The notes under the pieces were generated by a model that was given only the letters and a program-made list of their open reading frames with translations, ran no database searches and was not told the DNA's origin. Made by a program: the position numbers and the translations under genes. Of a stretch of DNA of 64,000 nt, positions 31,249 to 33,691 are shown one piece after another; the first letter of the stretch is position 1; the number at the start of each line of letters is the position of its first letter. The stretch comes from Adineta vaga (lineage: Eukaryota > Animalia > Rotifera), in NCBI GenBank assembly GCA_021613535.1, contig CP075495.1, positions 6,944,001 to 7,008,000 of the forward strand. Direction: 5' to 3'.

Positions 31249-33691
31249 TTAAAATTCACGTCGATGATATTTATCAGGTTCATAATACGATGTAACAACA
31301 ATACGGTCAGAAAATTTTCGTCCTGATAAAGCTTGTTGAGCCTTTTGACATTCACTTATTGAAGTGAATTCAACAAAAATCTGAAAAGAAAAAATAGAAA
31401 TGAAATTCTTTCTTTCTTTCCTATTGAAATAATCACTGCTTTTACCTTTCCAACGCCAGGTACATCGACACCTGCAATTGGTCGTGGAATCTCAAGACTT
31501 TTAACAAAACCATATTTACTACATTCTTCACGTACATCATCCATAATATCTAGGAAAGAATAGTAAAAGTTATTCTAATTAGATAAAAACTATATCACTA
31601 GCAATTATTTTACCTTCATATTCATCATCATCACGTAATTCATCTTCAGTAACCATATTCAATAAGCACAAAACTTCGGTACTTACGGTCGCAGATTGAA
31701 TATTCATACCTGGTATTTGAAATCCAGGCATCTAGAGAAAAAGATCAATTAATACACATGATTTTTTCAAGCAAAAGAAATATCTTTTGTTTCCAATAAC
31801 TTACGCCAGGCATGTTCTTAGCACCAACACTAGCTAGTTGAACAATCAATTTTTTATCACCTAATTGCATACCATGTAAACCTTGAATAGCTGCATCTGT
31901 AACACTAGGTTCATTGTATTCACAAAAAGCATAACCTTTGGAAAGTCCTGTTGCTGTATCTTTAACCAAATTAAAAGCTTTTAATGGACCAAAACTCATT
32001 AATAACTCTTTGACCTAAAAATATTATATAAATGAATCGAAAAGAATAGAAGAGATCGGTGCTAAAAAAAAGAGGGTATTTTCGAATTTTCTGTATCCAA
32101 TTAAATCTAAAAAAAGATTCGCCCAACCATGAATTGTCTAAAGACTAAAAAAGAGAAATTTCTAAACGATAAAAAACAATGTTTTTAATAGTATTCTAAC
32201 GCAGTATGTTCGCCACTTTGTTATCTAAAATCGAACTCACAGAAAACGAGTGTATGTTCATGTATTCGTTGTTCTAGAGTCGTACCGAGCGAGAATCAAT
32301 TTTTCTTAGTTTTAGTTTAACCAAACACTCGACACAGCATCGCTGGCCTAGTCTAGAACAACAATAGAAAATAATCAGCTTGCTTGATCTCAACTACTAA
32401 CACATACAAAATCTTTCAGGATCGTCTCGAACAAAAACATTATAAGTCAATATTCGATATCAAAATCTCCATAAGGTCACACCGTAGATAATAATTAAAA
32501 GTTTATGCTCAAGAGTGCTGAAATTTTATGACAATTCGTTTTTTCTTATTTCGAGACGATCCTGAATATCATTTAGTATTCAATTCGCTTTTTACTATTC
32601 GAGATAAATAATCGTCGTTTCTTACCTGATCATCACTCAAATAATTTGGTAAACCACCAATAAATATTTTATAAGGTGAATCAGTAACCACCGTGGAAAC
32701 AACACCTAAAATTTCAAGATATTTCTATTTTGTAAGAAAATCAATTTTTCCTTTCGACAAGAACTTACCAGGTACATTCATATTTGGTAGATCACCTCCA
32801 GGCATGGCTTGATAATCTCGTGGTCGACGTATTTTAAGTGACTGACCTTGAAAAACAATTCCATCAAATGCCATAGCAGCCGTTGTTTCATCAATCGAAC
32901 GGAACTAATGTATACATATAAACACACATATTTATTTTTTAAAAATGGTATATTTTTGAACGTACTTCAAGAAAAGCAAAATTTTTGTCAAGATTTATTT
33001 GAACAGCAATAACCGGACTGCCTTCTGTTTGTGATAAACCAGTCAGCTGCATTTGTTGATTAAAAAATTCCATCATAGCATTCTAAAAAACATTCGAATA
33101 TGAAAGATTTCTTTTCTATGATAAAGAATATGATTTATACTTCTGAAACACCAAATGGAATATTTCCAACATATAATCGTCGTGATTGATGTACCACATG
33201 ACTACCAAGTACTGGTGTTGCTGCAGCTGTATTTGCACTCCAATCTTTTCCAGTAAACATTTGTGAAATTTGACCCGAAGCTAGAAATTAATCAAAATGA
33301 CACATAGATATGATATCTTTTCTATAACTTACATTGCATTGCTTTGTACTGGACAGGTGTTATATGTTCAAAACCAACGGGTGGAACATCCCAGTATTTG
33401 TATTTTTTCACTGGTTTCTTTTCACTTTTATTCTCTTTCTTTGAACGATCTTTTGGAGATTGAGAACGACTATGTTTATGTCGACTGCTCTCATGTGGTG
33501 GTGAACGACGTCGTTTATTATCACGATCTCGTGAACGGTCTTGATGACGACGTGATTTACGATCTCGAGAACGAGATCTGGATCGTGATGAACGACGATT
33601 GTTGCGATCTAAATTTTATGAAGAAAGAAAGAAAAAATTAGTTTAAATTAACGAAAAAATCTTTTAATTTACCTGGTTCGTCGTTGGCCAT
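31249..33691 (-). CDS. U2AF2: Splicing factor U2AF large subunit (U2AF65)
   Basis: RS domain; [15 protein letters not shown] (ULM); RRM1 [14 protein letters not shown]2 [11 protein letters not shown] and [32 protein letters not shown]...[25 protein letters not shown]. Confidence 0.97.
32415..32566. repeat. Perfect 17-bp inverted repeat (TTCAGGATCGTCTCGAA / TTCGAGACGATCCTGAA) in a U2AF65 intron
   Basis: 32415-32431 is the exact reverse complement of 32550-32566, with a 118-nt spacer. Confidence 0.9.

Follow-up and report, generated by a model that had tools for sequence, protein, structure and literature searches.

Why should the gene for the main 3' splice-site recognition factor carry, in one of its own introns, a crowd of sites resembling those that the factor binds? 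Cellular control of the level of this factor is only partly understood, and the question is raised by the window analysed here, i.e., the whole 64,000-nt stretch of Adineta vaga DNA, whose minus strand encodes the U2AF large subunit, U2AF65 (Table 1). An earlier note, made from the letters of the DNA, had proposed that the one long intron of this gene holds nine decoy 3' splice sites, through which excess U2AF would divert its own transcript into retained or decay-targeted RNA. We find that intron 6 holds a genuine poison-splice module, conserved and expressed, with competing acceptors, a stop, and an array; that the switch is one of negative feedback, with U2AF itself shifting splicing to the dead-end form, is the reading we favour with moderate confidence.

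The assignment of the gene to U2AF65 holds: its product matches an annotated A. vaga protein (P0240) at 443/443 residues and has the RS region and three RRM-type domains of an ortholog. Bdelloid rotifer proteins are its closest relatives (81-91% identity), with U2AF large subunits of other animals at 59-74%. Intron 6 is also, as had been stated, far longer than its neighbours at the LSDDQ/VKELL junction (slashes mark joints throughout): the remaining eight introns of the gene span 52-73 nt, and introns other than intron 6 in nine related loci (n = 51) span 45-73 nt. An intron-hosted snoRNA or other known RNA was rejected, there being no Rfam match in intron 6 at E values up to 1. Contigs of two sequencing runs (X5 and X8) also show another U2AF65 transcript, of greater divergence, over 32011-32986, in agreement with a second A. 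vaga protein (P0025, 86% identity). At the other end of the gene, a strong acceptor-like site (a long T/C tract, then CAG) lies at 33718 on the minus strand, 27 nt 5' of the ATG, and RNA contig cover ends beside it at ~33713; bdelloids carry out trans-splicing, and the site could be the end of a 5' UTR intron or a spliced-leader trans-splice site.

Table 1. Features of the U2AF65 gene and of its intron 6 (positions within the window)
Feature	Position	Strand	Remarks
U2AF65 (U2AF large subunit) gene	31249..33691	-	10 coding exons, 443 aa; all 9 introns removed in RNA contigs
Exon 6	32626..32705	-	Ends LSDDQ; strong donor (94th percentile)
Intron 6 of productive mRNA	32015..32625	-	611 nt, phase 0, LSDDQ/VKELL, early in RRM2; joint listed in X1, X3, X15, X5, X8
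Intron removed in alternative isoform	32353..32625	-	273 nt; joint 32352-32626 (CT..AC)
17-bp perfect inverted repeat, 5' arm	32550..32566	-	Contains invariant TCAG/G, G at 32562
17-bp stem, 3' arm	32415..32431	-	Loop 78-248 nt, mostly unalignable between relatives
Alternative (poison) acceptor	32348..32364	-	G at 32353; second AG 5 nt on; tract is 5' arm of predicted hairpin
Exon 7 5' extension in alternative RNA	32015..32352	-	338 nt; contig 31987-32354 in X1, X3, X15; also X5
Premature stop TAA	32317..32319	-	In frame, after 11 codons; ~736 nt 5' of last exon junction
3' arm of predicted acceptor-masking hairpin	32266..32290	-	Includes 32274 site
GTGAGT, then TTTTAG 16 nt on	32225..32240	-	Conserved; weak donor by bdelloid PWM; no joint listed
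Decoy acceptor array	32062..32225	-	TTTAG-type sites 32225, 32162, 32145, 32138, 32107, 32062; no joint listed
TGGTTGGG motif within array	32122..32129	-	Invariant in 7/7 aligned loci
Canonical exon 7 acceptor	32015..32030	-	Middling strength (43rd percentile, PWM); sequence conserved

Assembled contigs from 8 of 22 runs were compared with the window; seven runs are RNA-like, an "RNA" label assigned by automated guess, and have the introns of the gene removed, and one (X13) is DNA-like. Splicing of intron 6 is not clean and constitutive: exon 6 is joined to the acceptor at 32353 in six of the seven RNA-like runs (X1, X3, X6, X15, X5, and X8), which come from five studies. In the seventh (X10), this joint is not listed and the region is without contig cover, and in X13, where cover is even, it is absent among the joints listed. 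RNA contigs run unbroken from 32352 across the whole array into exon 7; X6 has a single contig (31805-32352) joined to exon 6, the alternative joint being the sole one listed, and in one RNA-like run with this joint the extension is ~95% identical to the window. The product of the alternative isoform is 267 aa long, without most of RRM2 and without the UHM, and three exon junctions lie downstream of the stop at 32319-32317, the position expected of a premature termination codon (PTC) in AS-NMD. Junction-contig depths for the alternative, canonical, and fully retained forms were 45/58.1/7.7 in X1, 68/56.2/8.2 in X3, and 21.4/25.6/14.7 in X15, with 7.6/10.3 for the first two in one further run; contig depth being a poor gauge of level, these values are taken only as of the same order. 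The prediction of a non-productive RNA was thus right in that a premature-stop RNA bearing the array exists, but the main route to it is the proximal acceptor at 32353, with whole-intron retention a minor form. Contigs with full retention show up to six differences from the window at 32433-32609, probably strain or allele variation.

Neither the downstream Py-AG sites nor the internal GTGAGT has a joint among those listed in RNA contigs; since contigs lose rare forms, "decoys unused" here means merely that no joint is listed. Two further outcomes were rejected: (i) a cassette exon (32352-32241) ending at GTGAGT, for which the joint is not listed and the donor scores below -1.5, against 1.73 for the 10th percentile of real donors, although occasional use is conceivable, and (ii) a recursive-splicing or storage form, the joint CAG/ACTAG creating no GT donor, so that the alternative isoform is not convertible to productive mRNA by recursive splicing.

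Candidate acceptors were scored by a position weight matrix (PWM) made from 51 real bdelloid U2AF65 acceptors with intron 6 left out, a small set of related introns and not a genome-trained model. By this measure, five sites between 32352 and 32030 reach the median real acceptor, compared to 0.53 in dinucleotide shuffles (0/2000 reach five), and each of them (32225, 32162, 32145, 32138, and 32062) outscores the canonical 32015; several sites had been judged by eye to look as strong as this acceptor. TTYAG occurs six times in the same interval (1.36 in shuffles; 1/2000), and the array tile ranks first of 396 non-overlapping 323-nt tiles from both window strands (five sites; next best three); Py-AG density hence lies above background. 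Under a strict definition requiring a long pyrimidine tract, the window excess is borderline (3 versus 1.05, matched by 45/500 shuffles). The upstream 256 nt of intron 6 have no site reaching the median real acceptor. The site at 32107, which reads TTTTTTTAG, falls at the 12th percentile of this small PWM, yet is kept in 5/6 relatives. All nine AG coordinates of the earlier note are correct, and its nine decoys become six: the TTTAG-type sites without a listed joint stand, 32353 is instead the used acceptor, and 32274 and 32196 (18th and 2nd percentile) are weak.

A metagenome scan with exon 7 confirmed at least 171 loci, and among the best 80 are 12 bdelloid-like loci, 10 of them distinct (L008, L010, and L011, being identical in exon 7, were counted once). 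The anticipated cross-species conservation is present: among these, the alternative acceptor is found in 9/10 and the array in 7/10 distinct bdelloid loci. The acceptor occurs in eight genomic relatives and is joined to exon 6 in L005, a cDNA that represents the alternative isoform, in spliced form, of a less closely related bdelloid (exon 7 85% identical); in this cDNA, the extension runs straight into exon 7, GTGAGT is kept, five TTYAG sites are present (21/500 shuffles), and the tail is frameshifted to 66 residues. In six loci (L001-L004, L006, and L007), the intron is 592-790 nt long and shares with the window its acceptor, stop, array, and GTGAGT..TTTTAG unit; each has an excess of TT(N)YAG (0-7 of 500 shuffles). 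This unit is much shorter than any intron of the set (45-73 nt). The array is missing from L009 and L012, which keep the acceptor, stop, and GTGAGT, and L008/L010/L011 has an ordinary 47-nt intron 6 (2954-3000) devoid of switch elements, so that some gene copies can do without the array. L008/L010/L011 either lost the element naturally or is a second copy that escapes regulation. As only 3/26 branches reach at least 95 in a tree of the bdelloid copies made by a quick method, L008, L009, and L012 are not distinguished as second copies or as members of other genera. In the Rotaria gene model P0018, inserted residues beginning TR at the LSDDQ/VKELL junction are, from the protein sequence, consistent with the same alternative acceptor.

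Against the six close loci, the extension is 0.73-0.82 identical (shuffled, 0.50-0.62), compared to 0.41-0.70 (shuffled, 0.40-0.61), i.e., near baseline, for ordinary introns; exon 7 differs at 5-7 of its 23-24 fourfold sites. Five of the six decoy AGs are kept in 6/6 relatives, compared to 0-2 of 6 for the non-tract AGs at 32305, 32196, 32091, and 32216 (0/6 for 32196). The position of the TAA stop is shared by 6/6 aligned relatives and by L012, and the substitutions in the 11 extra codons of the bdelloid relatives are amino-acid changing, which argues for constraint on the RNA and not on the peptide.

Two structures are predicted in the intron. In the first, a 13-bp helix pairs 32278-32266 with 32364-32352, i.e., with both the pyrimidine tract and the AG at 32353, and the consensus fold adds a 9-bp inner helix (32290-32282 with 32335-32327). 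The hairpin has z scores of -4.4 in the window, -5.8 in L001, and -5.5 in L003, and is not significant in L007, L009, and L012 (-0.6, -1.1, and -0.6). Over eight loci, 97% of cells pair versus 34-50% for slid partners; 0/22 pairs are changed on both sides, and the within-pair shuffle is not beaten (69/500). Masking of the 32353 acceptor by this hairpin is a prediction of these models. In the second structure, the 17-bp repeat, the sole perfect one in the window with arms within 300 nt, would bury TCAG/G at 32562, which lies 64 nt from the donor, an ordinary intron length. The stem persists in L001-L004 and L006, with 68-83 nt between the donor and TCAG/G; a U-A pair of the window is replaced by C-G in 4/5 relatives, and a mismatch or wobble is found in four. 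Intron 6 as a whole is not unusually stable (z -1.22). Structure within the array region was rejected, as it folds worse than shuffles (z +1.83) with a weak consensus fold (-5.2 kcal/mol), and in local folding the decoys are not clearly more open than other sites.

These elements can be combined into a feedback model. The acceptor hairpin, predicted to pair the pyrimidine tract and AG of 32353, would keep this site closed, with the upstream stem predicted to hide the would-be acceptor at 32562 and to bring the donor nearer 32353. When plentiful, U2AF would open the masked acceptor and load the single-stranded decoy array, and the loaded array would compete with the middling true acceptor at 32015. 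U2AF on the array and U1 on GTGAGT would then form a stalled early complex in which the RNA is likely held in the nucleus; such a hold would explain the presence of a stop-bearing RNA at a depth similar to that of the normal form. Alternative RNA that escaped would be a target of decay. At low U2AF, the exposed distal acceptor would be favoured and full-length protein made.

It is possible, if on balance unlikely, that unproductive splicing is instead regulated by a cue other than U2AF, with the decoys passive or only aiding retention; candidates are feeding state, desiccation, an effect of temperature on the hairpin, and the binding of TGGTTGGG/T-rich motifs by some other protein. An intron-retained isoform of C. 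elegans uaf-1 is reported to rise ~ninefold on fasting (PMC10755965), whereas the mammalian U2AF2 poison exon is reported to respond to U2AF35 depletion (PMC4402522). At the present locus, junction depths vary among runs, with solely the alternative joint listed in X6, conserved non-acceptor motifs are present, and two loci have the poison acceptor without the array; however, most of what is conserved consists of U2AF-type sites, and these lie in the U2AF gene itself. Feedback by U2AF and control by another cue are compatible with each other and need not be exclusive.

A functional role for the truncated protein is improbable. The 267-aa product would hold the RS domain, the U2AF35-binding region, and RRM1, and might act as a modulator or dominant negative; its isoform is well represented in RNA contigs, the stop position is constant across most bdelloid loci, and predicted truncated proteins ending in xRxRG occur in several animals. 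Such a role sits poorly with the amino-acid-changing substitutions in the extra codons and with the frameshifted tail of L005, and a short product needs no conserved 338-nt decoy array.

That the motifs are a by-product of an AT-rich intron, and the early acceptor splicing noise, is scarcely credible: genome G+C is ~30%, poly-T runs raise counts above dinucleotide shuffles, and the strict tract definition is borderline in the window (45/500), but this reading is largely refuted by conservation and RNA, given the first rank of the array tile among 396 window tiles, the keeping of decoy AGs (five in 6/6, one in 5/6) versus 0-2 of 6 for non-tract AGs, and the recurrence of the same joint in five studies and in L005.

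Early stops at the same junction also occur outside bdelloids. Predicted proteins end there in LRYRG in the termite Cryptotermes (P0123) and in P0236, in RRVRG in the crayfish Cherax (P0324), in LRERG in a gastropod-like animal (P0187), and in RG in a psyllid (P0317); xRxRG-stop tails make up 4 of the 318 proteins with the junction, a set gathered by queries largely aimed at such tails. Among 10 loci examined, L014, a cDNA with best matches to nemertean, mollusc, and brachiopod, has a 68-nt exon reading PRGRG-stop, the arthropod-like L018 has an acceptor and an exon reading RRGRG-stop, and L016 and L021/L023 have similar YAG/NNNAGG starts. An NNTAGG or NNAAGG exon start lies at the exact junction in the termite, the crayfish, the gastropod-like animal, and another, lophotrochozoan-like transcript. 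The bdelloid exon likewise starts NNTAGG; as it shares little else, homology with the exons of other animals is unproven. In L018 (150-215), the purine-rich start of the xRxRG exon could fold back on the exon's own pyrimidine tract (z -1.83, 7/200), much like the masked acceptor of the rotifer; this is suggestive only, and hairpin masking was not found in L016, L021, or L063. Many assembly-predicted proteins read into the intron at LNEDQ (tails VC, VS, VR, and VI), hinting at frequent retention of the RRM2 intron in other animals; genomic contigs would yield the same tails.

An excess of acceptors is found in the arthropod-like L023 (2,499-nt intron; 5/500) and in L063 (535-nt intron; 8/500), and is absent in L067 and in partial upstream stretches of L016, L018, L019, and L025. 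The intron of L063 is retained in a contig otherwise free of introns, and the closest named matches of this locus are insects (81% to Frankliniella), in a comparison panel without nematodes. In the insect-like intron of L023 (502-3000), a strong cluster of tract-YAG sites is followed by a possible 131-nt exon that starts CTTAGG and ends at a GC donor-like site. Decoy arrays occur in the same intron of rotifers and arthropod-like loci and may do so in nematodes. The switch may be very old, judging from predicted proteins and transcripts of insects, a crayfish, and a snail-like animal, in which stop-early exons lie at this point; that the protostome ancestor already had a self-limiting poison exon in the RRM2 intron of its U2AF65 gene, kept ever since, is an extrapolation that we make tentatively, as quite conceivable though somewhat against the balance of probability.

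The locus lends itself to testing, being compact, well expressed, and well conserved: the masked acceptor, the stem, the donor-like site, and the six decoys are separable, and natural variants without the array (L009 and L012) or without the whole element (L008) can be added. If the stop-early exons of insects, crustaceans, and molluscs share one origin, few unproductive splicing events conserved in a core spliceosomal gene would be older. If protostome-wide, the uaf-1 "oddity" would become an ancient U2AF rheostat, assembled from an acceptor masked by structure, an array for binding, and a spliceosome-stalling micro donor-acceptor unit. We found no rotifer or protostome-wide report of such an element in U2AF65 in the open-access literature, a scope outside which most subscription papers and isoform databases fall.

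The nearest known system is that of C. elegans, for which Zorio, Lea and Blumenthal in 1997 and MacMorris, Zorio and Blumenthal in 1999 reportedly described an alternative exon 3 of uaf-1, said to be placed close to where RRM2 begins and to carry an in-frame stop. Both cases involve the same gene, in which an alternative region is rich in the 3' splice-site consensus of the respective species; in the rotifer, this region is included in an alternative RNA with a stop, and its array is conserved in relatives. U2AF binds Py-AG sites of the array type (PMC2762039), the worm gene is reported to have an alternative, non-productive region with many copies of the 3' splice-site consensus (PMC2082412, PMC9909350), and the idea of a decoy array in the worm goes back to 1997 (PMC2082412). 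An exon boundary of uaf-1 is reported to fall within RRM2 (PMC2762039), the point on which intron position was compared. The two systems differ in that (i) the worm repeats lie in an alternative exon, whereas the rotifer region is a 5' extension through an alternative acceptor, without the second splice that a cassette exon would have; (ii) the rotifer has a donor-like site 5' of the array, with no use seen; and (iii) folding of the rotifer intron predicts a masking hairpin, with a further stem upstream.

In mammals, human U2AF2 intron 5 falls in RRM1, and the DDQ/VK intron corresponds to what we take to be human U2AF2 intron 8; the mammalian poison exon and the rotifer switch likely occupy different introns. 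They share the gene and a conserved, PTC-introducing choice, which in mammals is a poison cassette exon in intron 5 (PMC4402522, PMC8091538, PMC6547761). Its inclusion is given as 57.5% in EJC libraries and ~4.7% in ordinary RNA-seq (PMC8091538), i.e., the isoform is scarce in the latter, whereas the rotifer form assembles at near-normal-form depth; the accessible text of these papers describes no decoy array for the poison exon. The USSE of U11/U12-65K differs in that its 5' splice sites, to which U11 binds, are of the minor-spliceosome type and have a 3' UTR context, compared to U2AF-type acceptors in a coding intron of the rotifer, and is alike in that repeated sites recognised by a factor, within its own gene, are reported to divert splicing with nuclear retention of the RNA (PMC5473595).
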